Positions 11,888 to 29,366 of a stretch of 41,432 nt of DNA are shown here, piece after piece. The notes beneath the pieces are model-generated. The model saw nothing but the letters and a program-made list of their open reading frames with translations. It was not told the DNA's origin and searched no databases. The stretch comes from an uncultured Mycoplasmatota bacterium (GTDB taxonomy: Bacteria; Bacillota_I; Bacilli_A; RF39; UBA660). Location: positions 1-41,432 of the forward strand of contig URXR01000001.1 of assembly GCA_900551925.1 (NCBI GenBank), given 5' to 3'. Position 1 is the first letter of the stretch; the number at the start of each line of letters is the position of its first letter. The position numbers were made by a program, and so were the translations under genes.

Positions 11888-11944
11888 AATTTACAAATAT
11901 AGTTTAATATGATATAATAGGAAAGAATTTAAAGGAGTATATTT

Positions 11945-12680: not shown

Positions 12681-12685
12681 TTTTA

Positions 12686-13312: not shown

Positions 13313-13374
13313 TTTTTCTACCTCCTTATTTATTATAACATATTTAAATAATAAACAAATATTTTATTAATATA

Positions 13375-13416: not shown

Positions 13417-13427
13417 AAGGAGGTTTT

Positions 13428-15333: not shown

Positions 15334-15390
15334 GATACTATTTACATATTATTTTTAGAGGTGTATACTTACCTATAAGGAGGAATGATT

Positions 15391-15636
15391 ATGAAATGTC
15401 CAGTTTGTAAAGATGTAACTTTACTTATGTCTGAGAAGCAAGGAATTGAAATTGATTATTGTCCAGAGTGCCGAGGAATTTGGCTTGATAGAGGGGAACT
15501 TGAAAAGTTATTAGAACGTCAAGATAATAAACATGATAGTTATGATGATAAAAGAAATTATCATGATGATAAAACTTCTAAAAAGAGAAAGAAAGAATCT
15601 TTTATTGGAGAAATATTTGAAATCTTTGGAGAATAA
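15391..15636 (+). CDS. TFIIB-type zinc-ribbon protein (zf-TFIIB family)
   Basis: CPVC...CPECRGIWLDRGELEKL signature. The ATG at 15391 has correct spacing to AAGGAGG. Confidence 0.75.
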   Translation: MKCPVCKDVTLLMSEKQGIEIDYCPECRGIWLDRGELEKLLERQDNKHDSYDDKRNYHDDKTSKKRKKESFIGEIFEIFGE

Positions 15637-15648
15637 TAGTTGTAAATT

Positions 15649-15682
15649 AAAAAATTCTAAGTGTTGAGCTTAGAATTTTTTT
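15649..15682. terminator. Bidirectional terminator
   Basis: Stem aattctaag/cttagaatt flanked by an A-run and a T-run, between convergent genes. Confidence 0.7.
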
Positions 15683-16388
15683 AGTTATCTACTCCTACTT
15701 TTTTATAGACTAAATTAAACATAATAATACTTACTATAAACCAAACTGCTATTACTAATAAAGGCATATCAATATTAGAAAAGGTGGCAGTATGAGAGGA
15801 AATATCATGAAAAATTGTCATCATAGCATCAGTTGGTAAGAAACTAGAAATTTTGGATACTATTTGGTTATCGGTCATAGCTATGAAAAGTGGAGCCATA
15901 AAAATTATCATAAATGGCATGGAAAGTAAACCGGCGGACATTTGATTTTTAGATAAAAGTCCTACTACTGCACCAAAGAAGATTACTGCTAAGGCAACGA
16001 AAAGTCCTACTAGTTGATAAGCTAAAAATTCATTCATAGGTAGATTTACTAATAAATAGATTACTATATTATCCACTACTACGAAAAGTAAGCAAATTAA
16101 AGCTTTGGCGATTAAGATTTCGGTTGCTTTAACGTTATTTAACATTAAAGTTCTTAGAGTGTTTTTTTCTTTTTCTTCTGCTATAATAGTACCCATTAAG
16201 GCTACTGGTACCATAGCAATATTTAAAAGGACACATAAGGAAAAAGTAAATTCATTAGTTAGAGTATCCAAGTTTGAATATATTAAGGCAAAGGCTATAG
16301 GAAGTATCACATAGATAAAGACATTAAGATTTTTAGTTAAGTCTTCTATTCCTAGTTTAAATAAGGTCCAGATTTTAGATATACTCAT
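15681..16388 (-). CDS. ABC-2 type transporter permease
   Basis: Six TM helices. 4-nt overlap with the upstream ATPase gene. Confidence 0.75.
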   Translation of the reverse strand: MSISKIWTLFKLGIEDLTKNLNVFIYVILPIAFALIYSNLDTLTNEFTFSLCVLLNIAMVPVALMGTIIAEEKEKNTLRTLMLNNVKATEILIAKALICLLFVVVDNIVIYLLVNLPMNEFLAYQLVGLFVALAVIFFGAVVGLLSKNQMSAGLLSMPFMIIFMAPLFIAMTDNQIVSKISSFLPTDAMMTIFHDISSHTATFSNIDMPLLVIAVWFIVSIIMFNLVYKKVGVDN

Positions 16389-17194
16389 TTTAATTCCCTC
16401 CCTGTTAAACTTAAAAATATTTCGGCCAGATTTGGTTCTTCGGAATGAATTGATTTTATTGTTTTATCTTGGTTTTTTTCTAAAGCTTTGATTAGTTTTT
16501 CAGTACTTTTTGGTACAACTAGTTCTTTATCATCAGAAAATTTGATAATTATACTATTTTTAGAATATTTTTGTTTTAAAGCGGAAGGTGTATCTAGCTC
16601 TACTATCTCTCCTTTATTTAGGAAAGCTACCCTATCACACATTTTGTCAGCTTCTTCCATATTATGAGTAGTTAAAAAGATAGTTGCACCATTTTTTCTA
16701 AGGTCAAATAATAATTTGTGGATTTCTTCTACAGTTGCCGGGTCTAATGCGGCAGTTGGTTCATCTAAGAATAATAATTTAGGGTTATGAATAACAGCAC
16801 AAGCTAGAAGAAGTCGTTGTTTCATTCCTTTAGATAGATTTTTTACTTTTTGATCTTTACTATCCCATAATTTTACTTTTTTTAAGATTCTTTCTACTTC
16901 TTTGGTATCAGTTTTAGATAGTTCAGCGAAAAAACTTAAGTTACGATAGACTGTTAAACGTTCGTAAACGCCACTTGTGTCACTTAGAATACCTATTTCT
17001 TCTTTGTTTACTGATACTTTACTAGTGCCAGAAGTTGGTACTAACTGATTAGTTAGTATTTTGATAGTAGTGGTCTTCCCGGCTCCAGAGGGTCCTAGAA
17101 AACCAAATATTTCCCCTTCTTTAACATTAAAACTTATATTATTTAAGATTTTCTTTTTACCAAAAGACATATTTAAATTTTCTACTTTTATCAT
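16385..17194 (-). CDS. ABC transporter ATP-binding protein
   Basis: Walker A GPSGAGKTT, signature LSKGMKQR, Walker B LLFLDEPTAALD. Confidence 0.93.
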   Translation of the reverse strand: MIKVENLNMSFGKKKILNNISFNVKEGEIFGFLGPSGAGKTTTIKILTNQLVPTSGTSKVSVNKEEIGILSDTSGVYERLTVYRNLSFFAELSKTDTKEVERILKKVKLWDSKDQKVKNLSKGMKQRLLLACAVIHNPKLLFLDEPTAALDPATVEEIHKLLFDLRKNGATIFLTTHNMEEADKMCDRVAFLNKGEIVELDTPSALKQKYSKNSIIIKFSDDKELVVPKSTEKLIKALEKNQDKTIKSIHSEEPNLAEIFLSLTGRELK

Positions 17195-17327
17195 ATAATT
17201 ACTCCTTGCTTTCTTTTTACATATTAATTATAAAATGAGATATTCTAATTGTAAAGATTTTTTGGAGTTTGGGATTATTTATAGTATAATTTAGATATAG
17301 AAAATAGTTTTAAAAGGAGAATTAAAT

Positions 17328-17846
17328 ATGAAAGAATTAACAGATACTATTTTAATGCAAAGTATGGGACAAATTCATGCTCTTGCAATAATTTTTCCAG
17401 TAATATTACTTTTACTTGCACTAGTTATAATAATTATTCAGTACACTTCTAAAAAGAAATCTGCTAAGAATAATCAGAATGAGGTTACAAGAAATTTTAA
17501 AGGATATGGATATATAATTGCTATGGTAATTATTGTACTTTTAATAGGAGGATTATTTTTTAGTGTTTTTAATCTTTCTAAAACAGGAAAAGATAGTGAT
17601 TGGTATGTTACTATTGATTCTATAACAAGAAAATATGAAACTAAAGAAGTAAATGATCCTGGTACTAGAACAACTTATTATTATGTAGAAGTAAATGGTA
17701 GTGATGATGTTCATGTAACAAAATATGATTATGATAGTTTAGAGGAAAATGAATCTGTTTATGTTTTAAGACGTGAAGATGGTACGGCAGAAAAAGTTTA
17801 TTCAGTAAATGATTATCAATATACTGGTGAGAGATTAAGTGATTAG
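17328..17846 (+). CDS. Membrane protein, unknown function
   Basis: Two TM helices followed by a soluble C-terminal domain. RBS AAAGGAGAA. Confidence 0.6.
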   Translation: MKELTDTILMQSMGQIHALAIIFPVILLLLALVIIIIQYTSKKKSAKNNQNEVTRNFKGYGYIIAMVIIVLLIGGLFFSVFNLSKTGKDSDWYVTIDSITRKYETKEVNDPGTRTTYYYVEVNGSDDVHVTKYDYDSLEENESVYVLRREDGTAEKVYSVNDYQYTGERLSD

Positions 17847-17976
17847 AAATTTTAGATAGTTTATAAATAGATATAATTATTTAAGCTTTAGTATTAATTT
17901 GGTAAACTCAACTTCTGATTCGTGTAATATTTTGCTAATTTAGTGTATAGTTAAATCAGGAAGGAGCGAAAACTAT

Positions 17977-18594
17977 ATGGATCAAATTAAAATTGGAAAA
18001 TTTATAAGCTTAAAAAGAAAAGAAAAAAGGCTAACTCAACAAGAATTAGCGGAAAAATTAAATGTAACTGATAGAGCTATCTCGAAATGGGAAAATGGAA
18101 AATGCTTACCAGATATAGGAACAATTCCAGAATTATGCAAATGTCTTGGTTTTACTGTTAATGATTTATTTAGTGGTAAGATTGTTGATAGGAAAGATAA
18201 TGAAAAAAAGCTAGAAGAAAATTTACTGGAAATGGTTAGAGTAAAGGAAAAACAAGATAAAGAATTATTATCATTAGAAATATTTATTGGTATATTTGTT
18301 TCTGTTATAATGCTAGCTTGTGTTTTTACGGCATCTTTCATTAATATGCCTTATTGGTTAAGAATACTGCTAATTATTTTAGGTTTTATTCCATTTATCA
18401 TTGGTATTTCTTATGCAATAAGAATAGAACAAATCGCGGGTTATTATGAATGTGATAATTGCCATTATAAATACGTACCAACTTATAAAAGTGTGCTATT
18501 GGCTATGCATTCTGGTAGAACAAGATATATGAGATGTCCTAAATGTGAGAAAAAGACTTGGCATAGAAAAATAATAAGCAACTTTTACAAATAA
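17977..18594 (+). CDS. XRE-family HTH regulator with two TM helices and a C-terminal zinc ribbon
   Basis: HTH LTQQELAEKLNVTDRAISKWENGK, a hydrophobic segment, then CDNC...CPKC. Confidence 0.8.
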   Translation: MDQIKIGKFISLKRKEKRLTQQELAEKLNVTDRAISKWENGKCLPDIGTIPELCKCLGFTVNDLFSGKIVDRKDNEKKLEENLLEMVRVKEKQDKELLSLEIFIGIFVSVIMLACVFTASFINMPYWLRILLIILGFIPFIIGISYAIRIEQIAGYYECDNCHYKYVPTYKSVLLAMHSGRTRYMRCPKCEKKTWHRKIISNFYK

Positions 18595-18784
18595 ATTTTA
18601 AATGACTATATTTTAGATTATGTTATAATTCCAGGAATGGATAATTATGGCAGTTATAGAGTAAAGTGCAAATTAATAAGTAAAGCTTGGAAAAAGTTTA
18701 ATAAGAAAGTAACGAAGGATAAATTGTAAAATTTGCAATAGCAATAAAATTATGCTACTATATAACAATCGAAAGGAGTATGCA

Positions 18785-19771
18785 ATGAAACCAATAAGTA
18801 TTAGCAAAACATTAAATTTTGGAAAAGGTAGTATAGAAGTAAAATACAATGGTATAACTGCAAATGATAATGTTGACTTAGATAAAATAGAAACATTATT
18901 AGATAATTTTATAAATAATCATAGACACAATAATATGATAGAAAATGTCTCAATCATAAGAACAATATTAAAGGACTGTGAAGAAAAACTATTAGTTATT
19001 TTTTATCAGGATGAAAAAGGCTCAGAACTTGTTAAATATGATAATTTAAATTTAATATTATATGAAAAAAGTAAAAGAGAAGAAAATAATGATTATTATG
19101 ATAAATATAAGATTAAATATGAGCCAACTAGTGGTATAAAATTAGATTATAACAGTCATGAAACTGATATCACAAATTATCCAGATATTGAATTGATATC
19201 TAAAGAAATAACTGAAATAATAAAACAAATTTATTATTTAAAAAATACTAAAGCAGTTATGTTAGATATAAACGATAAAGAATTAATTGAAATATATAAA
19301 TTATTTTATAATGAAAATCCTAATTTTAGTAGCAAAGGTATAAATATAAAAGTTCAAGCAATGATGTCTATTTTAGCAAAGTTTGGTATTTCTCTATATG
19401 AGGATTATGGTTTTATTCTATTGGGAAAAGTAAAAATGCCTATATCATTAAATTTAGAACAAAGAGTCAATAAATTATATCCTTTAGGAGAAATAAGCAG
19501 TACTGAAGATAGTATAAAATTGGCTGATGAACCTAAAAAAATAATTAAGATTGTTGGAGAATGTATAAGAGAAGCAATTTCTAATGAACAAAGCCAAAAT
19601 GAAGCATTAATAACAATTAGTAAGGTTATTCACGCAGGAAGATATTGCCTTTCTTCTAATAGTGATATTAAGGAATTATCTGAATTTACTGAGCGTAATA
19701 CTGATGAGGTTGAATCAAGTATAAAACTAGTGAAACGTATTGAAAACAGAATTAATAAGCAAGTAAAATAA
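18785..19771 (+). CDS. Hypothetical protein
   Basis: Intact ORF. The start at MKPISI has AAAGGAG 7 nt upstream, whereas the ORF-track start 33 nt further upstream has none. No confident family assignment. Confidence 0.55.
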   Translation: MKPISISKTLNFGKGSIEVKYNGITANDNVDLDKIETLLDNFINNHRHNNMIENVSIIRTILKDCEEKLLVIFYQDEKGSELVKYDNLNLILYEKSKREENNDYYDKYKIKYEPTSGIKLDYNSHETDITNYPDIELISKEITEIIKQIYYLKNTKAVMLDINDKELIEIYKLFYNENPNFSSKGINIKVQAMMSILAKFGISLYEDYGFILLGKVKMPISLNLEQRVNKLYPLGEISSTEDSIKLADEPKKIIKIVGECIREAISNEQSQNEALITISKVIHAGRYCLSSNSDIKELSEFTERNTDEVESSIKLVKRIENRINKQVK

Positions 19772-19774
19772 ATT

Positions 19775-19825
19775 GAAAAAGATGGTTATTAGCATTAGCA
19801 CTCATAATCATCTTTTTCTTTTAAT
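19775..19825 (+). terminator. Rho-independent terminator
   Basis: 10-bp perfect outer stem gaaaaagatg/catctttttc (19775-19784 / 19809-19818), followed by a T-run. Confidence 0.65.
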
Positions 19826-20010
19826 ATATAATCTCTATAACTATTGATAAATTTAGAAAGTTTCATCAATTTTTTTAAATCTTCAGCATCTAATACCCTA
19901 TGATCGTATAAATCACGAGTAAATTGAATACATTTATCTTTTGATACAATTTCCAAGCTGATACGTGGTAGTTTATAAACAAAAAAACTAATCCATTTCT
20001 GAATTAGTTA

Positions 20011-20035
20011 TTTATCAAAACTCGAAAAGTTCGAG
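20011..20035 (-). terminator. Probable original terminator of tRNA-Gly, now displaced by the island
   Basis: Hairpin ctcgaa-aag-ttcgag (20021-20035) followed by TTTTGAT on the minus strand. It lies 11 nt downstream of the orphan copy of the tRNA 3' end. Confidence 0.55.
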
Positions 20036-20046
20036 CACATTTTATT

Positions 20047-20055
20047 ATGGAGCGA
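20047..20055. repeat. Left copy of the 9-bp direct repeat ATGGAGCGA (attL core; orphan copy of the tRNA-Gly 3' end)
   Basis: Identical to 29291-29299, which covers the last 8 nt (TCGCTCCA, minus strand) of the tRNA-Gly gene plus one base. Confidence 0.7.
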
Positions 20056-20143
20056 TTGATAAGAGGGTTTTAAACCTTTTATCAAAAAAATATCCCTCAC
20101 TCGTTAAATAGATTATAGCACATACATTGAAATAATACACTAA

Positions 20144-21688
20144 TTAATTATGAATTGATAGTGATTCTATAAAATTTGAAGTCACTTTTGCTAAATTTTC
20201 AAAATCATAATCTGAACTAATTGGTGGTATATGAACAAAGATCATTTTAATATCTGAAGAAATTTCCTGAATATATTTCATACCTTCATAGTATATATTA
20301 TTGCATAAATAGTTACCAGCATCATTAGATAACGAAAAAACTATCTTATTTGATGAAAGATATGATGTAAATTTTTTATAAGGAAATTTAGTTGTAATTT
20401 TATTATTATTTTTATTTCCAATCAATTCTATGTAAATATGATCACTATTAGGCTTTTGTCCAAATGCTATAATGTATTTGTAATTATTCTTATTTATTTT
20501 ATTTTTTAGTTCATTTACACTTGTGGAAAAACTATTCGTTAATTCCAGTTTATCAAGATTATTTGCACGAATTTGATGAAGTAGCATAGAAGATGAATTA
20601 TTTTTGCCTTTAAAGGAAGTTATTAAAATATTCGGATATATTCCTCTTAACTTGTTTTCTTTATTTTCAATTTTGATTTGTACTTTACTAGATTCAACTA
20701 TTATTTTATCTAAAAACTTATTCATAATTGAACATGTTGTCCATACATCAAGATTTGAATAAGTTAAAAAGAAATATGTAGAAATATGTACCAAAGATAT
20801 TGAAACATTTTGCATTGGTATAGATAATCCATAATTTGAGGGACCAACTAGTTTTAGCTTTTCTAAGTTTGGTATTACTCCTAATGATTCTTCATTGGCT
20901 TTATGATTACCATGTATATAGGCAGAAGATAGTTTATAATGTCCATATAACTTGTCCATATCAACTCTATCCTTTATTTCTTGAAAGGTAACTCTTTTTT
21001 TATTAAATATATCATTTGCCCAGCCATAATCTCCTTTAACATAGTCTTGTCCATATTTATCAATCATTAAATCATAGTTGTATTTTAAATTTTCAAAAGA
21101 TGCATCAGTATGATTTTGATGTCCTCTTTCTCTTGAAAATTTTTCATCTAAGTATTCCTGAATATGGTAATAATTTAAATATTTTTCACATAATTCTTGA
21201 TTATTTTCATCATATAGTAATTTACCAATTACTGATAATTCATAAAGTGTTCTCCAACGACTAAAAGCTCCATCAGGATAACCATTTTTAATTAATGTTA
21301 AACATTCTCTAGATATTAGTAATGCTCTAGCTTGAATATTTTGTAATGCATTAAACAATAAATTATTATTTTTATAAGCGTCTTCATAAAAAGTTTCAAC
21401 AAAAGAAGATGTACAACTAGTTATTAGTTCTATTAGTGCTTCAAAATAGTCAATTGGCTTTTTCCAAGTTTTATAAAGTCTATTAGTAAAATATCTATTT
21501 TCCTTTCTCACAGATTCTAGTTCTCGTCCTTTATCACTATCAAATCCCTTATAAAGAATATCTGAACCACTTTTAATAGAATGTTGCATTAGCTCAATAA
21601 GATAATCAGGATTTTTCTCAACTTTCTTTTCTATTATATCTTTATTATCTTCTATTAATTTCAATAACGCTTTATGATACTCATTCAT
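20144..21688 (-). CDS. Fusion protein: all-alpha DUF5677-like N-terminal region + pyroglutamyl-peptidase-I (C15)-like C-terminal domain
   Basis: The C-terminal ~165 aa aligns by eye to pyrrolidone-carboxyl peptidase: IIAFGQ...YIELIGN (Glu421), SNDAGNYLCNNIYYEGM (Cys462), MIFVHIPP (His486). The N-terminal region has ARALLISRECLTLIKNGYPDGAFSRWRTLYELSVIGKLL, which resembles DUF5677. RBS AGAGAGG. Starts 18 nt after the HNH gene. Confidence 0.7.
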   Translation of the reverse strand: MNEYHKALLKLIEDNKDIIEKKVEKNPDYLIELMQHSIKSGSDILYKGFDSDKGRELESVRKENRYFTNRLYKTWKKPIDYFEALIELITSCTSSFVETFYEDAYKNNNLLFNALQNIQARALLISRECLTLIKNGYPDGAFSRWRTLYELSVIGKLLYDENNQELCEKYLNYYHIQEYLDEKFSRERGHQNHTDASFENLKYNYDLMIDKYGQDYVKGDYGWANDIFNKKRVTFQEIKDRVDMDKLYGHYKLSSAYIHGNHKANEESLGVIPNLEKLKLVGPSNYGLSIPMQNVSISLVHISTYFFLTYSNLDVWTTCSIMNKFLDKIIVESSKVQIKIENKENKLRGIYPNILITSFKGKNNSSSMLLHQIRANNLDKLELTNSFSTSVNELKNKINKNNYKYIIAFGQKPNSDHIYIELIGNKNNNKITTKFPYKKFTSYLSSNKIVFSLSNDAGNYLCNNIYYEGMKYIQEISSDIKMIFVHIPPISSDYDFENLAKVTSNFIESLSIHN

Positions 21689-21706
21689 AAAATACCTCTC
21701 TTTTGT

Positions 21707-22618
21707 CTATAATTTTATTTTGTTAATTTCTTGAATCATCTTACTATCATAGGTTACTAGCTCGTTTTCATTTTTCAGATATTTTATATTTAGTCCTATA
21801 AAGTTGAATAATTTTTTTTCTGTTTCTCGAATATTTGTAACCGATACATTAAACTTTTTTGCAGTATCTTGAAGTGTATGTGTTTTTATTTGTTTGTTGT
21901 AACCAAATCGATATTTGATTTTTTCAATTTCTGTTTTGTTAAAATTATTATTTAAATATTGAGAAATAAAATTATCTAACTCAAAAGATAGTTTGTAAAC
22001 TATTTTTGCAGTTTCTTCTTGTTGTTTATTTAAATGCAATTTAGAGAAAATGTTTTTAAGAGTTAAATCATTTTCTTTTTCTTTTCTGATATTATTTATA
22101 ACAAAAATTGAAACAATAATATCATAAAGCATTTCCTGAGTTAAATCTATTAATCCGTTTGCTAATTCATTAAAGTCTATAACTAATAATTCAGATTCAA
22201 AATTATTCCCACGCTTTAAATTGCATTCAGGACATAATATCCTAATATTATTTTCATCAGAGCTTCCACCTTTTGACCAAGGAATTATATGATCAAAATG
22301 AATATCTTTATCCAGAACACTTTTAGAACATAATTGACATATATTATTATCTCTTCTACTTACTTTTAATTGAACTTCTCTTGGAATAATTCTTGAAATA
22401 TTTCTGAGCTCTTTTGTTTCAGTAAATGGTTCTGCTACTTTGAATACAGGACAAATGTGTCCAAAGATTCTACATATCTTTTCTTTATTATCTTCTTCTT
22501 GTGGCATATATTCAACCAAAGAACCATAAGGGCAATATTTAATTTCCCAGCAAGGTTTACATACTGCTTTTATTCTTCGATTCCAATCAATATTTTTAGC
22601 CCAATTTTTAACTTCCAT
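21707..22618 (-). CDS. HNH endonuclease with an N-terminal Cys/His cluster and a C-terminal sigma-70 region-4-like HTH
   Basis: CKPCWEIKYCPYG...CRIFGHICPVF cluster. HNH core CQLCSK...HFDHIIPWSKGGSSDENNIRILCPECNLKRGN. C-terminal IKYRFGYNKQIKTHTLQDTAKKFNVSVTNIRETEKKLF resembles sigma-70 region 4. Confidence 0.8.
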   Translation of the reverse strand: MEVKNWAKNIDWNRRIKAVCKPCWEIKYCPYGSLVEYMPQEEDNKEKICRIFGHICPVFKVAEPFTETKELRNISRIIPREVQLKVSRRDNNICQLCSKSVLDKDIHFDHIIPWSKGGSSDENNIRILCPECNLKRGNNFESELLVIDFNELANGLIDLTQEMLYDIIVSIFVINNIRKEKENDLTLKNIFSKLHLNKQQEETAKIVYKLSFELDNFISQYLNNNFNKTEIEKIKYRFGYNKQIKTHTLQDTAKKFNVSVTNIRETEKKLFNFIGLNIKYLKNENELVTYDSKMIQEINKIKL

Positions 22619-22734
22619 AAGTATACCACTTCCTTTTATAATTATATCATACTTTCTTTAGTAATCTAGATAGGTATATAGCAATTTTTCTTTAAATATA
22701 GTACAATTTTATTAGCAAGTATTTTGGAGGTATT

Positions 22735-23406
22735 ATGGAAAATTTATTGAAAGAATTAATTAATAGTGTAAATAATTTAAATAGTTTTTCTTGGAACGAT
22801 TTTATTAATATACTCGCCTTAATAGGATCGTGGATAACAATAGTTTTTCTTCTTATTGAAAGGCGTGAGCATAATAGACCTTATTTACAAATTACATTTG
22901 AATTGGTTCGCTCAAGTTTAGCCTGTATTGTATTAACAAATACAGGAAATGTCCCTTTAACAATTAGAAATCTAAAGTTTGATGAAGAATTTATAAAACA
23001 ACTGCCAGAAACGGAGCAAAAGTTATTAAGAAAGCAAAAAAATGATATTAGAATATTTCCTGGTAAAAAATGGATAATTTGTTTAGGCGTAACAACATCT
23101 GATATCTTAAATAATTTTGAAAAAAAGAATTTAGAGATTTCTTATTCTTATTCAAAAATCAATAAAAATAAAATATATCAAGATAGTAGTAATATTGATT
23201 TTGAACAATATTCTGGGTTTCTAGTATATGTTTCTGAAATTGATGAATTAAAGCAGGTAAATGATAAAATTGAAAAACATACAAAAGAAATAAACAAAGA
23301 AATTAAAAAGGTTAGTGCGTCACTGGTTCAATATCAAAATTTAGAAAGTAAGTTTATAAATAGTATCATAGAACAGCATGATAAAAGTGAAGAAGGAGAG
23401 ATTTAA
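22735..23406 (+). CDS. Hypothetical membrane-anchored protein (N-terminal TM helix, C-terminal coiled-coil)
   Basis: RBS TGGAGG. Hydrophobic segment ILALIGSWITIVFLLI. No recognised family. Confidence 0.55.
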   Translation: MENLLKELINSVNNLNSFSWNDFINILALIGSWITIVFLLIERREHNRPYLQITFELVRSSLACIVLTNTGNVPLTIRNLKFDEEFIKQLPETEQKLLRKQKNDIRIFPGKKWIICLGVTTSDILNNFEKKNLEISYSYSKINKNKIYQDSSNIDFEQYSGFLVYVSEIDELKQVNDKIEKHTKEINKEIKKVSASLVQYQNLESKFINSIIEQHDKSEEGEI

Positions 23407-23408
23407 AA

Positions 23409-23963
23409 ATGAAAAATAATTATTTATTAGTCCATGGAAGTTTTGGAAGTCCATTTTCTAATTGGATTCCGTATCTAAGAAAAGAAATAGAAAATAAAAA
23501 ATTAGAAGTTTACACTCCAGACTTTCCAACAGGAGTTGGTTATCAAAACTATGAAAATTGGTCTAGGTTGTTAAAGACTTATGTTGAAGCAAATATTATA
23601 AATGAAAATACAATTATATTTGCTCATTCAATAGCACCTATCTTTATTTGTAAATTTCTAGTTGAAAATAAGATTAAAGTTAAAAGACTAGTTTTTGTCT
23701 GTGGTTTTAATAATTATCTTGGAATAGATAAAGATTATGATGCAGTTAATGAAAGTATGTATTTTGATAATCTTACAGATGTTAAGAATTGTTGTGATGA
23801 CATTGTATGTTTTTACTCTGATAATGATCCTTATGTAAAATATGAAGCTGAAAAAGATTTTGCTGATGCTATAACTGAAAATCAGATTATGATTTCAGGC
23901 GGTGGTCATCTAAATTCTGAAAGTGGATATACAGAGTTTCCTGAATTATTAAAATATTTATAA
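23409..23963 (+). CDS. RBBP9/YdeN-family alpha/beta serine hydrolase
   Basis: LVHGSFGSPFSNW start, nucleophile elbow FAHSIAP, SDNDPYV (Asp), GGGHLN (His). Starts 2 nt after the upstream stop, with GAAGGAGAG as RBS. Confidence 0.75.
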   Translation: MKNNYLLVHGSFGSPFSNWIPYLRKEIENKKLEVYTPDFPTGVGYQNYENWSRLLKTYVEANIINENTIIFAHSIAPIFICKFLVENKIKVKRLVFVCGFNNYLGIDKDYDAVNESMYFDNLTDVKNCCDDIVCFYSDNDPYVKYEAEKDFADAITENQIMISGGGHLNSESGYTEFPELLKYL

Positions 23964-24040
23964 CTATCACACGCTAATTGATTATGTCAATTTGCAAGTG
24001 TGTTTCTAAATTGTCAGAATTTAGTTTCTAATGGCTACGA

Positions 24041-25276
24041 CTATTTAAAAATATCGTAGTCTTTTTCTATTGATTTAGTTTGATTATCTGTAATGATTTG
24101 GATGTTAGTATCTTTTGTTATATCTTTAATATCTATCAAATCATAAATTTTATTGTCATAACAATCTTTCAATATATCAATTATTTCTTCTTTTTGATTA
24201 TTGTTTTTTGATAACAATAATTCTCTAAAAAATGATTTGAGTTTTTGAAAAATCTCGTATATAAAATTTCTTAAATTACTATATAATTCTTTTAGATTTA
24301 TATAATCTTGTTGCGAGTAATTGTGGTCAATATCTAAATTTTTATACTTGGTTTCTAATTGACTATAGGTAGTAATATACTTAGATATATTATTATAAAG
24401 CGCTTCGTTTCTTATTTGCTTTTTTACATTCTCACTATACATATCAAAATAATCTAACAAGATATTATATTCTTCTCCATCAAGAATTACTTTAGCAGAA
24501 TTAAATTTTCTTTTAGCATTTGATAGTATTCTTTTAATCTCGTTTGATGCTTTTTGAAACTCTTTTTGTTCTCTAAAAGCAACTCTATCAACATACTTAG
24601 TAAAACTTTTGAATTGCTTTGTTTCGATATTTTTAATACCAGTATTCTTTTCACCACGTTCTAATTTAAAACCATTATTAATTAATCTTTCATAATATTT
24701 ATCTTGTAATTTGCTTAAATGTGTTTTGTCTTTAATATATACTCTTTTAGAAATAGAGTATATTTCTTTATTACATCTTTTATCAAACTTTTTAACAAGT
24801 GGAATTACTACTAAATGAATATGAGGTGTTTTTTCATCAAGGTGCAAAGTAGCATGAATAATTTGTTCTTTCTTATAACCTAAATCTTCTATGACAAAAT
24901 TTATACTTTCGGTTGCCCATTTCATCATATCTTCGTGATTCATATTTTTAAAGAACTCTGCATCGCTAGTAAAAATCATTTCATCAGCAACAACACCTTT
25001 AGAATTATTTACAAACTCATAAAATGATTTTTTTCTATCAGATCTGATTATTTTCATTCTATCATTAAATTCTTTTTGATAATCTTTTGTAATTTCATAA
25101 AATTTATTTATATACTTCTTATTACAACGAATTAGTTCAATATTATTTTTAGAATCTTCGATTCTAATATCTGGATTAGATTTATAATAATCTTTTGTTC
25201 GTTGATTATGAGAACCAATTTGTGATAAATCATTTAAAGTTTTAATACCTTTACTTCTAAATATAGCATAACTCAA
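24041..25276 (-). CDS. mob: Plasmid recombination / mobilization relaxase (Pre/MobV family)
   Basis: N-terminus MSYAIFRSKGIKT...GSHNQR and HxH-type motif HATLHLDEKTPHIHLVVIPL. TTG start with AAAGGAGAA upstream. Confidence 0.9.
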   Translation of the reverse strand: MSYAIFRSKGIKTLNDLSQIGSHNQRTKDYYKSNPDIRIEDSKNNIELIRCNKKYINKFYEITKDYQKEFNDRMKIIRSDRKKSFYEFVNNSKGVVADEMIFTSDAEFFKNMNHEDMMKWATESINFVIEDLGYKKEQIIHATLHLDEKTPHIHLVVIPLVKKFDKRCNKEIYSISKRVYIKDKTHLSKLQDKYYERLINNGFKLERGEKNTGIKNIETKQFKSFTKYVDRVAFREQKEFQKASNEIKRILSNAKRKFNSAKVILDGEEYNILLDYFDMYSENVKKQIRNEALYNNISKYITTYSQLETKYKNLDIDHNYSQQDYINLKELYSNLRNFIYEIFQKLKSFFRELLLSKNNNQKEEIIDILKDCYDNKIYDLIDIKDITKDTNIQIITDNQTKSIEKDYDIFK

Positions 25277-25473
25277 CTTTATTCTCCTTTCTTATTTTGT
25301 TTATTTGTTTCTAAAATTCTTTTAATTTGTTTTTGATATTTTTTATCATTCTTTAATATTTCTAATAGAAAATAATTAGTTACTTGTTCAGCATTTCTTT
25401 CAAAATAATCAAGAATTTGTGATAATACTACTTCAAAAAAGTAGTTAATAAAAATCTTCTCCTTCCTTTTTAG

Positions 25474-25500
25474 TCAATAAAAAAGAGCAATTTCTTGCTC
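25474..25500 (-). terminator. Rho-independent terminator after the kinase fusion gene
   Basis: Hairpin gagcaa-tttc-ttgctc (25485-25500), followed on the minus strand by TTTTTTATT. Confidence 0.65.
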
Positions 25501-25513
25501 AATTTATTAATAT

Positions 25514-26980
25514 TTACTTTATTTTATTATTATGTTCTTTAAGATAAACAGCATCAAATTGATTTACATATTGATTAAATTCTTTAAATGATAAACCAGT
25601 AGGTATATTAGGAATTTCAGTTAAGACTCTAATATCATTATGTTCTTCAAAACCACTTGTAATTTTTTTAATTGCATCATTTATACTGCCATATTTATGG
25701 ATTCCTCTTTTAGGTATATTAGAATGTTCAAAATGATACCAATTATCATTATAGTTAAACAATACAAAGCAGTGCATTCTTACTTCTTTATCAAAATTTT
25801 CTTCAGTTTCATAGCCTCTATGACAATAAAGTTTATTTTCTAAACCTATTTTATCAAAAAAGTATTTAATTAATTTTGCTTGTTCTATACAAGTGCCAAG
25901 ACCTGTTTCTAATATTTCTTCAATAGACATTGTTTTATAATTTTCTCTAAAACCTTTTAAATTATTTAAATGTTTTAAACCATATTTATCAACCCAACCA
26001 TATTCAATATTTATATTCATAAAATCCATTAGTTGAGCATCATTTTCTATATTTTCAAAATTTAACTCATCCTTTAGACTTACAATTTTAGCAGCTGATA
26101 TAACATCGTTTTTTAATTCTTTTGAATTTTGATAATTAATAAGCTGTCTTAAATAATAAATCATGTCATAAATAGCTAGTCTTTGTGGTAAAAATTCTAC
26201 ATTTACTAACTCTGGATAATATTTTTCAATATATAATTTGATATTAGTATAATCACTTGAATTTGTGTATTGTTCTGTTTCTTCACTTGCAAATTTCCAA
26301 GGTTTTCTAATCATTCTATATAGAATATCCAACTCAAAATCTTTTGGAGCATACATTGATCTTTCAAAATCTATAATTTTTATTTTTCCATCTTTATAAA
26401 ATATATTATCAAAATGTAAATCATTATGAACCAAAACTAATTCTTCTTTTTTTAAATATTTTGAAAATTTAGAAAAAGCATATTCTATTAATTTTTGCTC
26501 TTGTTCTGTAAAAACATTTAGTGTTTTTGCTTTAGAATATAGTTCCGTAAATTGATTTTGTAAATAATTATTCCAATCAAAATTTTGTCCTTTAGATTTG
26601 TTTGAATGAATACTTTTCATTGCCTCACATAGCTGTTTAATGATATTTTCTCTTTCATAATCAGAAAAAGTATGCCAAACATTATATAAAGAAACTCCAT
26701 CTATTTTTTCAATTATTTCATAACAATAAGCTACATCTTTTTTGCTAATATCAGAAATATATAGTTTTGGGAAAAGATTATTTCCTGTGTTTTCTTTATA
26801 GAAATTAATTTCGTTTTTAAAATTATTTTCATTATCCTCATTAGTACAAATTTTAATAATATATAAATCATTTACTACAAATATAGTATTAGTGAATCCA
26901 ACATTAATTTTTTTTATTTGAGGATTATCGCCAAATAATTGTGAATTTTGCTTTATAATAGTACTGATTGTTTCTTGCAT
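25514..26980 (-). CDS. Fusion protein: APH/choline-kinase-type phosphotransferase + C-terminal transglutaminase-like (papain-fold) domain
   Basis: Kinase catalytic loop LVHNDLHFDNIFY and IIDFERS. C-terminal GLGTCIEQAKLIKYFF (Cys), RMHCFVLFNY (His) and WYHFEHS (acidic) match the transglutaminase-like Cys-His-Asp/Glu pattern. Confidence 0.7.
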   Translation of the reverse strand: MQETISTIIKQNSQLFGDNPQIKKINVGFTNTIFVVNDLYIIKICTNEDNENNFKNEINFYKENTGNNLFPKLYISDISKKDVAYCYEIIEKIDGVSLYNVWHTFSDYERENIIKQLCEAMKSIHSNKSKGQNFDWNNYLQNQFTELYSKAKTLNVFTEQEQKLIEYAFSKFSKYLKKEELVLVHNDLHFDNIFYKDGKIKIIDFERSMYAPKDFELDILYRMIRKPWKFASEETEQYTNSSDYTNIKLYIEKYYPELVNVEFLPQRLAIYDMIYYLRQLINYQNSKELKNDVISAAKIVSLKDELNFENIENDAQLMDFMNINIEYGWVDKYGLKHLNNLKGFRENYKTMSIEEILETGLGTCIEQAKLIKYFFDKIGLENKLYCHRGYETEENFDKEVRMHCFVLFNYNDNWYHFEHSNIPKRGIHKYGSINDAIKKITSGFEEHNDIRVLTEIPNIPTGLSFKEFNQYVNQFDAVYLKEHNNKIK

Positions 26981-27014
26981 TATTACACCTCACTTTAATC
27001 TTATTTTACCATAT

Positions 27015-28748
27015 CTAAGTATTTATTTGAAGCAAAGTATACTTATCTTTATCGAATTTACTTTGCTTTTTATTAGGAATAATTTGTAGAACAGAATTGC
27101 TAGATAAATTATTAATGTCAAGTTTCTCTTTATTAATGGTTATAGAATTTATTTTATAATATTTACTTAGTGATGAAATATATTTATTAATATCTTCTTT
27201 TGTTTTTTCATTAGATAGTATAATATCTTTTTCATTAATATTAACTACCATATCAAAACAATCGTTTCTAAACATATAACCAATGTTTTCAATTTCTTTT
27301 TTATTGATATTAATCTTTTTGATGACGACTTCGTCTTTTACTTTTTCTATTTCAATGGAATCAATATATTTCTTAATTAATTCTGATTTTTGTTCTTTGC
27401 TAAGTTTGTTCCACAGTCCATTTTTTCTGACATAATAAGATTTATACTTTAATTTTTCTAATTGAAATAGATTAGTATAAAGTTTTAGTTCTTCTTTATT
27501 ATTAATATTTATGTTCGCTTGTTTTAAATTATTTAGTTTAATTTCAGTTTCTTCAATCTGCCTTTTAATACTAATTTCTTCATCTTTAAATTCATCTAAT
27601 TCAATAACACTATCAACATAGGCTTTTTTGATTCTTTTTAGCTTGTTATTTAATTCTTTTACTATTTTGTTATATCTTTCTATTTCAACAGTAATATCTT
27701 CGTTAAAAAATGATTTAAAGTTATTATCTATAAGCAAGTAATAATCTAACATATCATTTAAAAATAGCATTAAAGGTTCTTCAATTTTCTTTTCATTAAT
27801 TCTAGTATTACAACAATTACATCTATAGTAGATTTGAGTAGGTTTATTTTTAGGAGTAGTAGAAGAGCCACCCATGATTTTATTACATTTAGAACAAATT
27901 ATCTTTTGCATATATACATAGGTGTGTTTTCTAGTATAGTTTTTTAAATTCTTTTCCTTTTGTTTTTGGACTAGTTTAAAATCCTCTTTATTAATAATAG
28001 CAGGGCATACATCTTCAAGTAATATTGTTTCTTCATCTTTAATTCTTTTTCGGTGTTGATAATCTCCTGCATAAATATAATTAGAAAGCATTCTGTCAAT
28101 TGTTGTTGTTCGCCAATGTCTATTAAGAGCATTTTTATTATTCAATTCTTTTGTAATAGCACAAACTGATAAACCATTAAGATAGGATTTAAATATGTCC
28201 TTTACGACTTCACTTTCAACATCATCAATCACTAATTCTTTATTAACTTTTCTATATCCAATAGGTGCTTTACCACTAAAATGTCCTTTTTTCGCTGCAC
28301 CAGTTAAACCAAATTTTGTTCTTTCACTAGTTCTTTCAATTTCTAATTGGGCAAGTATTGTAGTCATTCTAATAAAGAATTTTCCTGTTGCAGTATCAGT
28401 ATTAATTTCTTCTGATACACTTTCTAAACTGGTATCTGTTTCTTCAATTAATTTACAAATGCTTTCTAAGTCTTGGATAGAACGAGTAAGCCTATCTAGT
28501 TTATAGACAATGATTTTATTTATTTTGCCACTTTTTAAATCGTTAATCATTTCTTGAAACTTAGGTCTATCCATACTTTTAGCAGAAACACCTTCTTCAC
28601 GATAAATCTTATAAATTGTGTAGCCTTTAAAGTCACATAGTTTTTTCATACTTTCTTCTTGCTCATCTAAACTATGTCCATACCTTGATTGATCTTCTGT
28701 CGAAACACGAGGATAAAGTCCAACCATAAAGTTCTTCTTTTCGTTCAT
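27015..28748 (-). CDS. Large serine recombinase (resolvase domain + recombinase domain + zinc ribbon + coiled-coil)
   Basis: YPRVSTEDQS catalytic serine motif, KLDRLTRS, Cys cluster CSKC...CNCC, long Lys/Glu-rich coiled-coil tail. The start at MNEKK (28748) has AAAGGAGAA upstream. The ORF-track TTG extension to 28817 is probably spurious. Confidence 0.92.
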   Translation of the reverse strand: MNEKKNFMVGLYPRVSTEDQSRYGHSLDEQEESMKKLCDFKGYTIYKIYREEGVSAKSMDRPKFQEMINDLKSGKINKIIVYKLDRLTRSIQDLESICKLIEETDTSLESVSEEINTDTATGKFFIRMTTILAQLEIERTSERTKFGLTGAAKKGHFSGKAPIGYRKVNKELVIDDVESEVVKDIFKSYLNGLSVCAITKELNNKNALNRHWRTTTIDRMLSNYIYAGDYQHRKRIKDEETILLEDVCPAIINKEDFKLVQKQKEKNLKNYTRKHTYVYMQKIICSKCNKIMGGSSTTPKNKPTQIYYRCNCCNTRINEKKIEEPLMLFLNDMLDYYLLIDNNFKSFFNEDITVEIERYNKIVKELNNKLKRIKKAYVDSVIELDEFKDEEISIKRQIEETEIKLNNLKQANININNKEELKLYTNLFQLEKLKYKSYYVRKNGLWNKLSKEQKSELIKKYIDSIEIEKVKDEVVIKKININKKEIENIGYMFRNDCFDMVVNINEKDIILSNEKTKEDINKYISSLSKYYKINSITINKEKLDINNLSSNSVLQIIPNKKQSKFDKDKYTLLQINT

Positions 28749-28900
28749 TTTTTCTTCTCCTTTCTTTTTGAACGACAAAAAAACAAGAGAGAATTTCCCT
28801 TGTGTAAAGAACTCCAAAATATTTAAAATATACGGTTATATATAATTTCCGTATATTACCATTTTATCACATTTTTATAGGAACGTAAATGGCAAAAGAG

Positions 28901-29188
28901 TTATGAAATCATTTGTAAAACTAATGTTTCTAGTCTTTTTATAGTAATAGTATCTAAGCTATCTTTTATATAAATATTATTATCATTATTAAATACAAGT
29001 AGAATTAAACAAGATAGATTATTACTAATAATAATTTTATGTGGTTCATGAATAGAAAGGTTAGTTTTATTAAAATGAATATTTTTACCATTTATAAATT
29101 CTAAATGTAGTTTTGATATTTTAGGTATCTTGGTAATCTTTTCTTTGACACATAAAGGAAATTCTAATTGTTCTATGGTTATTTTCAT
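28901..29188 (-). CDS. Small hypothetical protein at the island edge
   Basis: 95 aa with AAAGGAGG 9 nt upstream of the ATG. Same orientation as the recombinase and just upstream of it. Confidence 0.55.
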   Translation of the reverse strand: MKITIEQLEFPLCVKEKITKIPKISKLHLEFINGKNIHFNKTNLSIHEPHKIIISNNLSCLILLVFNNDNNIYIKDSLDTITIKRLETLVLQMIS

Positions 29189-29213
29189 TTAAGTAAACCT
29201 CCTTTCCAACATG

Positions 29214-29250
29214 AAAAAATCCCATATCAACGAGCGATATAGGATATTTT
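29214..29250. terminator. Bidirectional hairpin insulating the island from tRNA read-through
   Basis: 10-bp stem atcccatatc/gatataggat (one G:T pair) with a 7-nt loop, flanked by A6 and T5. Confidence 0.55.
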
Positions 29251-29253
29251 TAT

Positions 29254-29280
29254 AAAATAAAACTCACACGAGGTGTGAGT
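29254..29280 (-). terminator. Island-encoded replacement terminator for tRNA-Gly
   Basis: 8-bp stem actcacac/gtgtgagt with a 3-nt loop (29262-29280), followed on the minus strand by TTTATTTT. Lies 11 nt after the tRNA end. Confidence 0.65.
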
Positions 29281-29290
29281 AATTCTCTCA

Positions 29291-29299
29291 ATGGAGCGA
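29291..29299. repeat. Right copy of the 9-bp direct repeat ATGGAGCGA (attR core, inside the tRNA-Gly 3' end)
   Basis: Identical to 20047-20055. Confidence 0.7.
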
Positions 29300-29366
29300 A
29301 CGACGGGAATCGAACCCGCATCCTAGCCTTGGCAAGGCCATATTCTAACCATTAAACTACATTCGC
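29292..29366 (-). tRNA. tRNA-Gly (anticodon GCC), CCA encoded
   Basis: Minus strand reads GCGAATGTAGTTTAATGGTTAGAATATGGCCTTGCCAAGGCTAGGATGCGGGTTCGATTCCCGTCGTTCGCTCCA. It folds as a cloverleaf with a 7-bp acceptor stem, anticodon loop TTGCCAA, T-loop GGTTCGATTCC and discriminator U. Confidence 0.93.

Follow-up and report, generated by a model that had tools for sequence, protein, structure and literature searches.

The segment at 20047-29299 of the 41,432-nt stretch of DNA analysed here (the window) is very probably an integrative mobilizable element (IME) that its own large serine recombinase (LSR) put at the last bases of a tRNA-Gly(GCC) gene. The element is ~9.2 kb long, its host is an uncultured gut bacterium, and the insertion lies exactly at the CCA end of the glycine tRNA gene. 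A first-pass annotation of the sequence had proposed that it is an IME, and this is supported by empty sites, by other occupants at the same base, by ends shared among relatives and by gene content. The element and its flanks comprise:

19978-20046, minus strand: B' arm, the chromosomal flank, with the tRNA's original terminator at 20021-20035 and one more hairpin (terminator scan)
20047-20055: distal 9-bp core (attR), the element end; similarity to all related elements stops at 20047
20056-20122, minus strand: conserved distal end, with the P arm, a leader and an extended -10 box
20144-23963: cargo slot (Pfam), which holds other genes in relatives
20144-21688, minus strand: DUF5677 and Peptidase_C15-like cargo gene (Pfam)
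21707-22618, minus strand: HNH cargo gene (Pfam)
22735-23406, plus strand: cargo gene for a 223-aa protein
23409-23963, plus strand: YdeN-type serine hydrolase cargo gene (Ser_hydrolase, Pfam)
24041-25276, minus strand: MobV/Pre relaxase, 411 aa, TTG start (Pfam Mob_Pre, PF01076, 6e-27)
25279-25449, minus strand: conserved 56-codon ORF upstream of mob, with an ATT start in the window and ATG or ATC in relatives
25514-26980, minus strand: APH/protein-kinase-fold protein, 488 aa (Pfam), a variable gene that is present in relative G306 and missing from most relatives
27015-28748, minus strand: LSR, 577 aa from its ATG (Pfam Resolvase 8e-37, Recombinase 4e-20)
28901-29188, minus strand: 95-aa gene, conserved across the clade on the att-site side of the recombinase
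29219-29290, minus strand: P' arm, the proximal element arm, with the inner half-site TTGAGAGAATT and terminator hairpins 1 and 2
29291-29299: tRNA-proximal 9-bp core (attL in the orientation of the tRNA), TCGCTCCAT on the minus strand
29292-29366, minus strand: tRNA-Gly(GCC), the integration target, whose sequence including the encoded CCA is unaltered by the insertion

The tRNA was located with ARAGORN, and Rfam RF00005 agrees (64.8 bits). Within the 41.4 kb, ATGGAGCGA occurs in exactly two copies, at 20047-20055 and 29291-29299, with a chance expectation of 0.07, and two copies were seen in none of 100 shuffles. As first described, the right copy consists of the final 8 nt of the tRNA (TCGCTCCA, minus strand) and one further base. 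The different hairpins reported beside the two copies are both real and terminator-like, one (20021-20035) lying 11 nt from the left copy and the other (29280-29262) 10 nt from the right copy, with a further terminator hairpin at 29245-29219. An assembly chimera is excluded, since an independent ENA contig of 52.8 kb and Logan contigs from two runs show the same arrangement at 100% identity.

The check for empty sites that the first-pass annotation had suggested was carried out on related genomes, and the refuting outcome that it had named was not observed. In two congeneric sister species (G003 and G011), the tRNA is joined directly to the 19978-20046 flank with a single core copy, and this flank includes the 20021-20035 hairpin. 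The latter is therefore the tRNA terminator that preceded the insertion and the 29262-29280 hairpin was supplied by the element, as had been predicted. Conspecific strains with flanks 99.8-99.96% identical carry different elements, and similarity to the window ends at 29288 on one side and at 20058 on the other. In strain L226 this CCA is occupied by another LSR element, L229 has a different IME (identity to the window stops at 20058), and L227 has a third occupant, which replaces the acceptor 3' strand in the manner of tyrosine-integrase islands. One conspecific strain carries, at the same base, an IME with CBASS in its cargo slot between mob and the distal end, and some conspecific strains have the same element as the window.

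The gene content is as originally described: an LSR, a MobV/Pre relaxase and cargo. Pfam found no Rep, T4SS, coupling-protein, phage or tyrosine-recombinase domains in the element ORFs scanned, and the absence of Rep, T4SS and phage genes fits an IME. Mob_Pre is the only transfer gene among these ORFs, giving a relaxase with no mating-pore genes, and the element has its own integrase and att repeats at a specific site. MobV relaxases are recognised by the motifs HxxR and HxDE...PHxH, and the translated relaxase has both intact (HNQR and HLDEKTPHIH), which places it in this family. It is 44% identical to an annotated MobV of a Clostridium baratii plasmid and 41-44% identical to MobV proteins of small plasmids. 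The 56-codon ORF contains an inverted repeat (ACTACTT/AAGTAGT, 25427-25445) that is a candidate oriT, and an alignment of 41 sequences of this ORF has changes at third codon positions and one compensatory change in the repeat.

The longest ORF of the LSR begins at a TTG and reaches 28817. Its N-terminal resolvase-type domain (PF00239, 8e-37) spans residues 34-179 of this 600-aa ORF, with the catalytic serine located by sequence inspection within YPRVSTEDQ, and is accompanied by the recombinase domain (PF07508, 4e-20) with a zinc ribbon (CSKC...CNCC, residues 285-313). A Lys/Glu-rich heptad-like stretch after the zinc ribbon was judged by eye to be a predicted coiled coil, and the protein also has a C-terminal extension. 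The LSR has a full-length match to the phrog_95 integrases (6e-110, residues 22-574), and its best solved relative is the TP901-1 integrase, the N-terminal domain of which was matched at 8e-20. Since it is the sole recombinase in the element and 49 of its 68 relatives lie beside a tRNA or tmRNA 3' end, the LSR is strongly implicated as the integrase of the element. The 95-aa gene next to it keeps its position from 36% to 98% LSR identity. Its product has an AlphaFold pLDDT of 92.6, with no match in Pfam, PHROG or PADLOC and no PDB fold match with E<1, and we regard it as the leading candidate for an excision (directionality) or accessory factor.

Elements of the same family in other genera have the proximal end (360 bp), the recombinase and the Mob region in common with this one, as well as a distal end of 71 bp whose limit is exactly 20047. 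Their cargo differs; the distal 71 bp are 85-100% identical among elements with different cargo. G306 is 95.6% identical over 5.4 kb and 100% identical in the distal 71 bp, with cargo unlike that of the window, as is also the case in L229. On the other hand, the cargo proteins of L111 are 99-100% identical in amino acid sequence, and G357 has the same cargo at 88% nucleotide identity. L111 is at tRNA-Gly(TCC), and copies 95-100% identical occur in more than one genus and at both the GCC and the TCC gene for tRNA-Gly. More widely, we compared 68 LSR relatives of 36-98% identity from MAGs of gut Bacilli and Clostridia. In the 49 that are linked to a tRNA or tmRNA, its same-strand 3' end lies 480-1060 nt upstream and element DNA begins right after the CCA in every case. 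A 24-member clade of the tree (support 100/98) uses only tRNA-Gly wherever the tRNA is visible (15 of 24 loci).

Differences between attL and attR, together with junction polymorphisms in G306, G088, G154 and L111, map the crossover to within GCTCCA (29292-29297). The reconstructed attP reads as first reported, with inverted TCAAT/ATTGA arms, and is symmetric in sequence about CT (29295-29296), with a core of 6-9 bp; the central dinucleotide is most likely this CT, that is, C72 and the discriminator U73. The P' arm has 0 mismatches in relatives and was found in 59 metagenome contigs. Its hairpin 1 (29262-29280) now ends the tRNA transcript and its hairpin 2 (29219-29245) lies directly before the RBS of the 95-aa gene. 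At the other end, the P arm has a T-arm-like motif (GGTTTAAAACC, 20066-20076), followed by a leader (20086-20107) complementary to 29227-29250 at the proximal end (fold results and covariation) and by an outward-facing extended -10 box (TGTGCTATAAT, 20112-20122) kept at a fixed distance among relatives. The two element ends form a split promoter/leader complementary to a terminator arm. In 6 of 7 independent P-arm types, 11-13 nt separate the T-arm-like motif from the core, compared with 8 nt in the tRNAs. Such a displacement in the element arms agrees with the model of serine integrases in which the zinc-ribbon-domain motif is shifted (PMC3783163). Two observations weigh against this account: the shift is ~4 bp, where the A118 model has 5 bp, and the B' arms vary widely between hosts, which is unusual for serine integrases, since these normally read both attB half-sites.

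In the mechanism that we propose, one LSR dimer would bind attP (...GGTTTAAAACCCTCTTATCAAT CGCTCCA TTGAGAGAATTACTCAC...) and a second would bind an attB in which the tRNA T-arm, 3' acceptor strand and CCA form the conserved half and the downstream flank the poorly conserved half. Strand exchange would take place at a crossover of 2 bp within GCTCCA, most probably at C72-U73 (CT), leaving the tRNA unchanged with a new terminator from the element and the old terminator behind the distal repeat. After excision, the MobV relaxase would nick an oriT upstream of its own gene, and the excised circle would be transferred by a conjugative element resident in the same cell; exchangeable cargo is carried between mob and the distal end. 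Catalysis, excision and mobilisation are all steps that we infer from sequence, with indirect support for excision and mobilisation from near-identical copies in different genera.

Beyond this single element, it is possible, and we suggest it tentatively, that the LSR and the 95-aa protein form widespread two-gene modules in gut Bacilli and Clostridia which use tRNA/tmRNA features as attB, with targets set by the discriminator and expression switched by topology. The modules would then read the T-arm as the zinc-ribbon-domain motif, with a crossover core made up of C72, the discriminator base and the CCA. Whether the discriminator is U, A or C would determine the set of tRNAs open to each subclade; target ends are GCTCCA for Gly and Thr-CGT, CACCA for Leu, Thr-GGT and tmRNA, and GCCCCA for His. 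Only excision to a circle would join the distal outward promoter and leader to the 95-aa/LSR operon, which has no promoter of its own; the leader would then pair with one terminator arm, so that topology would switch the module. A clade of such two-gene modules is not described in the literature within reach of our search.

Three other explanations of the locus were weighed. An insertion made by the serine recombinase could since have lost the ability to excise or transfer in this lineage and be a fixed relic, which we regard as improbable. In its favor, the exact attP junction is absent from metagenome contigs, none of the contigs with element relatives is circular, and neither an excised circle nor a repaired attB from this species was seen in metagenome contigs; likewise, no empty site was found among the conspecific strains compared, and the small ORF upstream of mob is without the ATG that close relatives keep. 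However, all genes are intact, near-identical copies exist in different genera and at both tRNA-Gly genes, and the occupant of the site differs between conspecific strains, whereas decayed relatives look otherwise, with truncated LSRs as in L090.

It is less probable still that a small mobilizable plasmid or phage satellite has integrated here, merely using a serine recombinase, even though mobilizable plasmids of 4-9 kb carry the closest MobV relatives and one relative is in an IMG/VR "viral" contig (L143). That contig holds two LSR elements in tandem, neither the element nor its relatives have a Rep, capsid, terminase or packaging gene, and no relative was found as a free circle. Slightly less probable again is that another enzyme acting in trans, a tyrosine integrase elsewhere or a relaxase, made the repeat while the LSR serves for resolution or inversion. 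Tyrosine integrases classically target tRNA 3' ends (PMC4383910), and the replacement of the acceptor 3' strand by the L227 occupant is of their kind. Against this, the element is without a tyrosine recombinase, its core identity is only 6-9 bp, and the LSR and 95-aa module is fixed in position and orientation beside tRNA ends over 36-98% identity. In addition, the reconstructed attP is symmetric about a putative non-palindromic dinucleotide, and the P arms have the displaced T-arm motif expected of LSR sites.

Insertion at tRNA/tmRNA ends is usually credited to tyrosine integrases. The LSR studied here belongs to a large clade inserting at such gene ends that is apparently undescribed in the literature within reach of our search. 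Published accounts (PMC4383910; PMC5704250) bear out the earlier remark that tRNA ends are seldom the targets of serine recombinases, and precedents, though sparse, exist in the Dehalococcoides ssrA islands (PMC3146451) and one Paracoccus phage (PMC6536676). The Dehalococcoides islands are likewise integrative mobilizable islands of a serine recombinase (DsiB, CcrB-like) with a tDNA target (the tmRNA gene), tandem accumulation and adaptive cargo, and they have a 20-bp repeat, insertion in the T-loop, a dsiB gene that overlaps attL and faces the target, and a second small serine recombinase, DsiA, with a six-gene module (PMC3146451). Here a core of 6-9 bp lies at the CCA end, the LSR is ~0.5 kb from the tRNA and points away from it, its partner is a 95-aa protein that is not a recombinase, and many different tRNAs serve as targets. 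A DsiB-type ssrA island is ruled out by the 9-bp CCA-end core, the distance and orientation of the LSR and the lack of a second recombinase. Paracoccus phage vB_PamS_Pami6, a single published case with a serine recombinase and a predicted attB in tRNA-Met, was compared by description only and is a 39-kb alphaproteobacterial prophage with no clade-level pattern described (PMC6536676).

Tyrosine-integrase tRNA/tmRNA islands (Islander-type, NBU1, streptococcal IME_tRNA) share the target class, the preserved tRNA, tandem accretion and defence or other cargo. Their recombinase family is unrelated, they duplicate tens of bp of tRNA rather than a 6-9 bp core, and they cross over in the anticodon or T loops rather than at the discriminator/CCA; an island of this type is ruled out here, with no phage-integrase-family domain in any element ORF. 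The phage serine integrases (A118/LI, TP901-1, Bxb1, phiC31) have the same catalytic, recombinase, zinc ribbon and coiled-coil domains. The reconstructed attP is, like theirs, pseudo-palindromic around a dinucleotide that is probably non-palindromic, a distal motif is displaced between attP and attB, and as with them, a small directionality factor is probably needed. However, identity to the present LSR is <=33%, and they target protein-coding genes or intergenic DNA, whereas here the target is a tRNA end with an essentially unconserved B' half-site.

A comparable organisation is found in the clostridial IMEs of the Tn4451/Tn4453 family, whose TnpZ is a Mob/Pre family protein. They are also small (6-9 kb), with one LSR (TnpX), a relaxase with oriT, cargo, no T4SS or Rep, and short repeats flanking the integrated form (PMC5704250). 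TnpX selects its targets with little specificity, uses a 2-bp GA core and does not depend on a directionality factor (PMC5704250). In contrast, the present element is site-specific for the tRNA-Gly CCA end and pairs its LSR with a conserved 95-aa gene; this LSR is distant from TnpX, with a weak PDB match at 3e-5.

The reading offered by the first-pass annotation, an integrative mobilizable element (IME) occupying 20047-29299 in tRNA-Gly(GCC), is supported by its ends, by empty sites, by alternative occupants, by a family of related elements and by the association of the recombinase clade with tRNA ends. The direct repeat ATGGAGCGA occurs twice in the window (20047-20055 and 29291-29299) against an expectation of 0.07, and none of 100 shuffled sequences gave two copies. 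On the minus strand it reads TCGCTCCAT, which comprises the last four acceptor bases, the discriminator U and the encoded CCA of the tRNA plus one further base. ARAGORN found this tRNA (29292-29366, minus strand) as the only one in the window; Rfam concurred, so that the right copy lies over the tRNA end as first described, and the Rfam scan returned no other RNA family. A different terminator-like hairpin follows each copy on the minus strand, as had also been noted: 20021-20035 lies 11 nt past the left, or distal, copy and 29280-29262 (terminator 1) 10 nt past the right, or proximal, copy, with a further hairpin at 29245-29219 (terminator 2) on the proximal side. A domain scan agreed with the gene content originally proposed, a large serine recombinase (LSR), a MobV/Pre relaxase and cargo; among the genes between the repeats it detected no Rep, T4SS, phage or tyrosine-recombinase domain, which fits an IME. 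The original observation is borne out in full.

Genes between the two repeat copies, from the domain scan
20144-21688, minus strand, DUF5677 and Peptidase_C15-like
21707-22618, minus strand, HNH
22735-23406, plus strand, protein without family
23409-23963, plus strand, Ser_hydrolase
24041-25276, minus strand, Mob_Pre
25514-26980, minus strand, APH/kinase fold
27015-28817, minus strand, Resolvase and Recombinase (the LSR)
28901-29188, minus strand, protein without family (95 aa)

The window is the entire contig of a 1.08-Mb, 26% G+C MAG, and empty sites were sought by locating rmuC, which immediately precedes the tRNA, among 40 relatives and comparing the DNA. This comparison, suggested as a check in the first-pass annotation, found them in two congeneric species (G003 and G011), where sequence matching window 19978-20055 abuts the tRNA directly with a single core. 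The empty junction of G003 reads ...CTCGAAAAGTTCGAGCAGATTTCACT ATGGAGCGA ACGAGGAG... and the left junction of the window ...CTCGAAAAGTTCGAGCACATTTTATT ATGGAGCGA TTGATAAG... Because the flank is joined to the tRNA in both species, the hairpin at 20021-20035 was the tRNA terminator before insertion, as had been supposed. In four other congeners the contig ends less than ~250 bp from rmuC, at the tRNA, as expected of a strain-variable site. Conspecific contigs, fetched by exact protein identity, carry several occupants. Three of them, from two runs (ERR911958 in ENA and Logan assemblies, and ERR11473468), contain the identical element (100%). Another (L226) matches the window at 99.8% identity to 29288 and then enters a different element with a 641-aa LSR right after CCA, while L229 (ERZ28595337) matches at 99.96% over 7.3 kb to 20058 and then enters a different IME whose cargo is a CBASS system of cyclase, NucC nuclease and E2-like protein (L229:7355-9493). 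Defence genes seem to be exchanged through the cargo slot of these elements. The IME of L229 also carries a NUDIX gene and a 462-aa MobV. A third type of occupant, in L227 (ERZ1745037, 4583-5050), replaces the 3′ acceptor strand of the tRNA, giving CGTTGCTTGCTCCA in place of CGTCGTTCGCTCCA, which weakens acceptor pairing; a terminator and part of a gene, ending ...VLVHNMCK, come next. Since the crossover position differs, the recombinase may differ too. Together these comparisons show the ends of the element, the empty site and alternative occupants at the same chromosomal base.

Exact-protein look-ups in the same species gave occupied sites only and no empty one. Beyond the distal end lies window 12650-19978 (GntR, two pairs of ABC-transporter genes, a zinc-ribbon protein, a membrane protein of the XRE family and a 328-aa protein without family), to which nothing in the DNA of the congeners G011, G004 and G007 corresponds; these carry other genes between the tRNA flank and their homologue of window ~7250-12650. 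We considered whether the region from 12.6 to 20 kb is a second LSR island and rejected this, as it holds no recombinase, only GntR, ABC-transporter and HTH genes. A 53-aa ORF at 19795-19956 was likewise rejected as a relic of an older element's 95-aa-type gene (hhalign probability 0.3%).

The LSR has a YPRVSTEDQ motif, a zinc ribbon (CSKC...CNCC) and then a Lys/Glu-rich stretch, and is matched along its whole length by the phrog_95 integrase. Its identity to phage integrases is at most 33%, and its best solved relative is the catalytic domain of TP901-1 integrase. Homologues (E<=1e-30) occur in 243 of the 401 genomes of the order, and relatives come from uncultured Bacilli, 'Tenericutes' and Clostridia MAGs of human, mouse and ruminant guts. 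The clade associates with tRNA ends: 68 distinct loci had sufficient upstream sequence, and in 49 of them a tRNA or tmRNA on the same strand ends 480-1060 nt upstream of the LSR start, where chance would give ~1%, given the 30 tRNA/tmRNA genes detected in the 1.08-Mb genome. The targets are Gly(TCC) (21), Gly(GCC) (10), Leu(CAA) (4), Thr(CGT) (4), His (3), Leu(TAG) (3), Thr(GGT) (2) and tmRNA (2), and in every tRNA-associated case the element DNA begins right after CCA. In the tree, a 24-member clade (support 100/98) lies only at tRNA-Gly wherever a tRNA is visible (15 of the 24 loci); a His pair forms its sister group, Leu, Thr(GGT) and tmRNA occur together in another clade, and a Clostridia branch sits at Thr(CGT) and Leu(CAA). 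Truncated Clostridia copies, which are not part of the tree, lie at Gly(TCC) and Thr(GGT) as well. Within a subclade, targets agree in their end sequence rather than in tRNA identity, and in the window's genome GCTCCA ends are limited to the two tRNA-Gly genes. It is probably the LSR that catalyzes insertion.

Target end sequences
GCTCCA, Gly; in the Clostridia branch both Thr(CGT) and Thr(GGT)
CACCA, Leu, tmRNA and Thr(GGT) of the Bacilli clade
GCCCCA, His

According to reviews, serine-recombinase IMEs and ICEs insert inside genes, and it is tyrosine integrases that use tRNA 3′ ends (PMC5704250, PMC5357655, PMC4701971); reviews and island-finding tools alike assign tRNA and tmRNA genes to tyrosine integrases and regard serine recombinases as enzymes that disrupt protein-coding genes (PMC4383910, PMC5704250). 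In the largest LSR survey only protein-coding targets were analysed, and tRNA goes unmentioned (PMC10083194). The earlier remark that serine recombinases are rare at tRNA 3′ ends therefore agrees with the reviews, and precedents exist. These are the Dehalococcoides ssrA islands, which differ in having the CcrB-like DsiB, a 20-bp repeat, insertion in the T-loop and a different module (PMC3146451), and a Paracoccus prophage, a single case assigned to tRNA-Met (PMC6536676). Tn4451-type IMEs share the gene set of an LSR and a Mob/Pre protein but, unlike the window's element, have low target specificity (PMC5704250). A coherent LSR clade at the CCA ends of many tRNAs would alter how islands are found and delimited in uncultured gut Firmicutes, and would also account for contig breaks at tRNAs in their MAGs. 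It combines tandem arrays with hot-swapped cargo, including CBASS, at one chromosomal base. Serine integrases whose natural attB is short and lies in a gene that almost all genomes possess would be attractive tools for adding DNA to untamed bacteria, with no need for a landing pad.

The comparison with the window covered eleven larger loci: ten surround close LSR homologues, and the other is the tRNA site of G002. All but G002 share a ~360-bp proximal block (29299-28940, including the 95-aa gene), the LSR and the Mob region (25510-23957). The 71-bp distal end (20117-20047) is present in 8 of the 11 loci at 85-100% identity, and the match stops at 20047 except in two loci, where it runs on into similar flank. 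In G306, from another genus, an element at tRNA-Gly(TCC) shares 95.6% identity with the window along 5.4 kb and has the distal 71 bp unchanged (100%), with different, shorter cargo. The window's cargo recurs at 88% nucleotide identity in G357 and, as 99-100% identical proteins, at tRNA-Gly(TCC) in a human-gut contig (L111). The proximal arm P′, GCTCCATTGAGAGAATTACTCACAC, was found in 59 metagenome contigs and one IMG/VR contig. It follows tRNA-Gly in ~24 and tRNA-Thr(CGT) in one; in the remainder it follows the distal end of another element with its own, distantly related LSR, forming tandem arrays. Junctions resembling P-core-P′ (L090, L143 and others), which might be read as excised circles, are such arrays and were rejected; the exact attP pattern had no match in the metagenome contigs, and none of 60 contigs carrying the P′ arm had terminal overlaps as a circular form would. 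At least five other distal-end types are joined to GCTCCA in the tandem arrays of loci L084-L143 (e.g., L085, L104, L114 and L101), several with a promoter-like TTGAAA-N17-TATAAT followed by ~45 nt with a TTCGTAA-loop hairpin or a GTTCGNAA motif. The window's own genome also carries, right after CCA, TTG(A/G)(C/G)AAATCTGTTCGAAC..., a proximal arm belonging to a second family of LSR elements (C18:8647-9087, C7:28733-28860, C50:8151-8540), the genes so followed being tRNA-Gly(TCC), tRNA-Leu(CAA) and tmRNA. C18 keeps a homologue of the 95-aa gene without an LSR and is thus probably a decayed element.

The attL and attR sites of several elements differ just outside the common GCTCCA, and L111 gives the same picture as the three below.

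Attachment sites of three elements
G306, attL CCGCTCCAT, attR TCGCTCCAT
G088, attL TTGCTCCAT, attR CTGCTCCAT
G154, attL CTGCTCCAT, attR CTGCTCCAA

As the differences lie only outside GCTCCA, the exchange falls within it. Joining 29290 to 20056 over one core reconstructs attP as ...TAATTCTCTCAATGGAGCGATTGATAAGAGGG... The symmetry originally ascribed to this site is present and centred on CT (...TTATCAATCG CT CCATTGAGAG...), with 7 of the 10 inner positions matching, and we propose C72-U73 as the central dinucleotide. If the discriminator serves as crossover, retargeting would follow a simple rule that can be tested. The T-arm motif of tRNAs, GGTTCGAWTCC (GGTTCGATTCC in attB), ends 8 nt before GCTCCA. 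In the P arms of the window's family and five other element types, the best match to it (3-6 mismatches) ends 11-13 nt before the core. The displaced motif is seen in six of seven independent P-arm types, as GGTTTAAAACC with 3 mismatches in the window's family; a random 38-mer has a best match of 3 or fewer mismatches anywhere ~3% of the time. The structure of A118 integrase predicts that a distal motif for the zinc-ribbon domain is displaced between attP and attB, by 5 bp (PMC3783163) versus ~4 bp in the tRNA-end elements. The LSR may recognize the T-arm. The B′ arms (the chromosomal side) of 14 junctions have little in common beyond A/T richness and a nearby hairpin, and attB recognition seems to rest mainly on the tRNA half, which would explain tandem accretion beside the tRNA. 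In several of the L084-L143 distal ends these stretches resemble parts of a tRNA. We rejected the distal end as a tRNA mimic in the acceptor register, since by inspection the discriminator and CCA, and not the acceptor strand, would be the pairing partners of its 5′ strand.

The 95-aa gene lies between the att site and the LSR throughout the clade, including Clostridia members at 36-50% identity, and its conserved residues include K17, G34, N43, P49 and Y73. Its AlphaFold model is confident (pLDDT 92.6) and had no match in the PDB, and the protein found none in Pfam, PHROGs or PADLOC. Its fixed synteny makes it a candidate directionality or accessory factor. The operon of the 95-aa gene and the LSR lacks its own promoter, the RBS coming directly after terminator 2, and every element has an outward-facing -10 box at its distal end, a fixed ~64 nt from the core (TGTGCTATAAT, 20112-20122 in the window). 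A conserved distal leader (20086-20107) and the 5′ arm of terminator 2 (29227-29250) are complementary to each other, and the two (window 20086-20122 and 29219-29251) are joined only across attP. The transcript rebuilt across attP folds with z = -5.0, and RNAalifold on 11 elements keeps a 21-pair helix in which one pair changes in a compensatory way (G-C to A-U, in 3 sequences) and five further changes are wobble-only. Possibly, then, only the excised circle would join promoter and anti-terminator to the integrase operon, a topology switch acting as a split riboregulator; alternatively, the leader RNA could act in trans. The split riboregulator stays a hypothesis because the model leaves terminator 1 undisrupted and the sequences compared are close relatives.

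The genes of the element suggest that it may be mobilisable. The MobV protein shows the motifs HNQR and HLDEKTPHIH and shares 41-44% identity with small-plasmid MobV proteins. Upstream of mob lies a conserved 56-codon ORF (25279-25449) with an ATT start in the window, an in-frame ATG two codons upstream in close relatives and ATC in the diverged group; changes at third codon positions show it to be coding. Within it, the repeat ACTACTT/AAGTAGT (25427-25445) is the best oriT candidate. In the window's cargo, PADLOC gave only a weak HNH/REase_II match. Elsewhere in the window's genome (C19:14282-19042), a distant second LSR (28% identity) is found close to a homologue (42% identity) of the APH-type kinase carried by the element, a gene that may travel with serine-recombinase elements.
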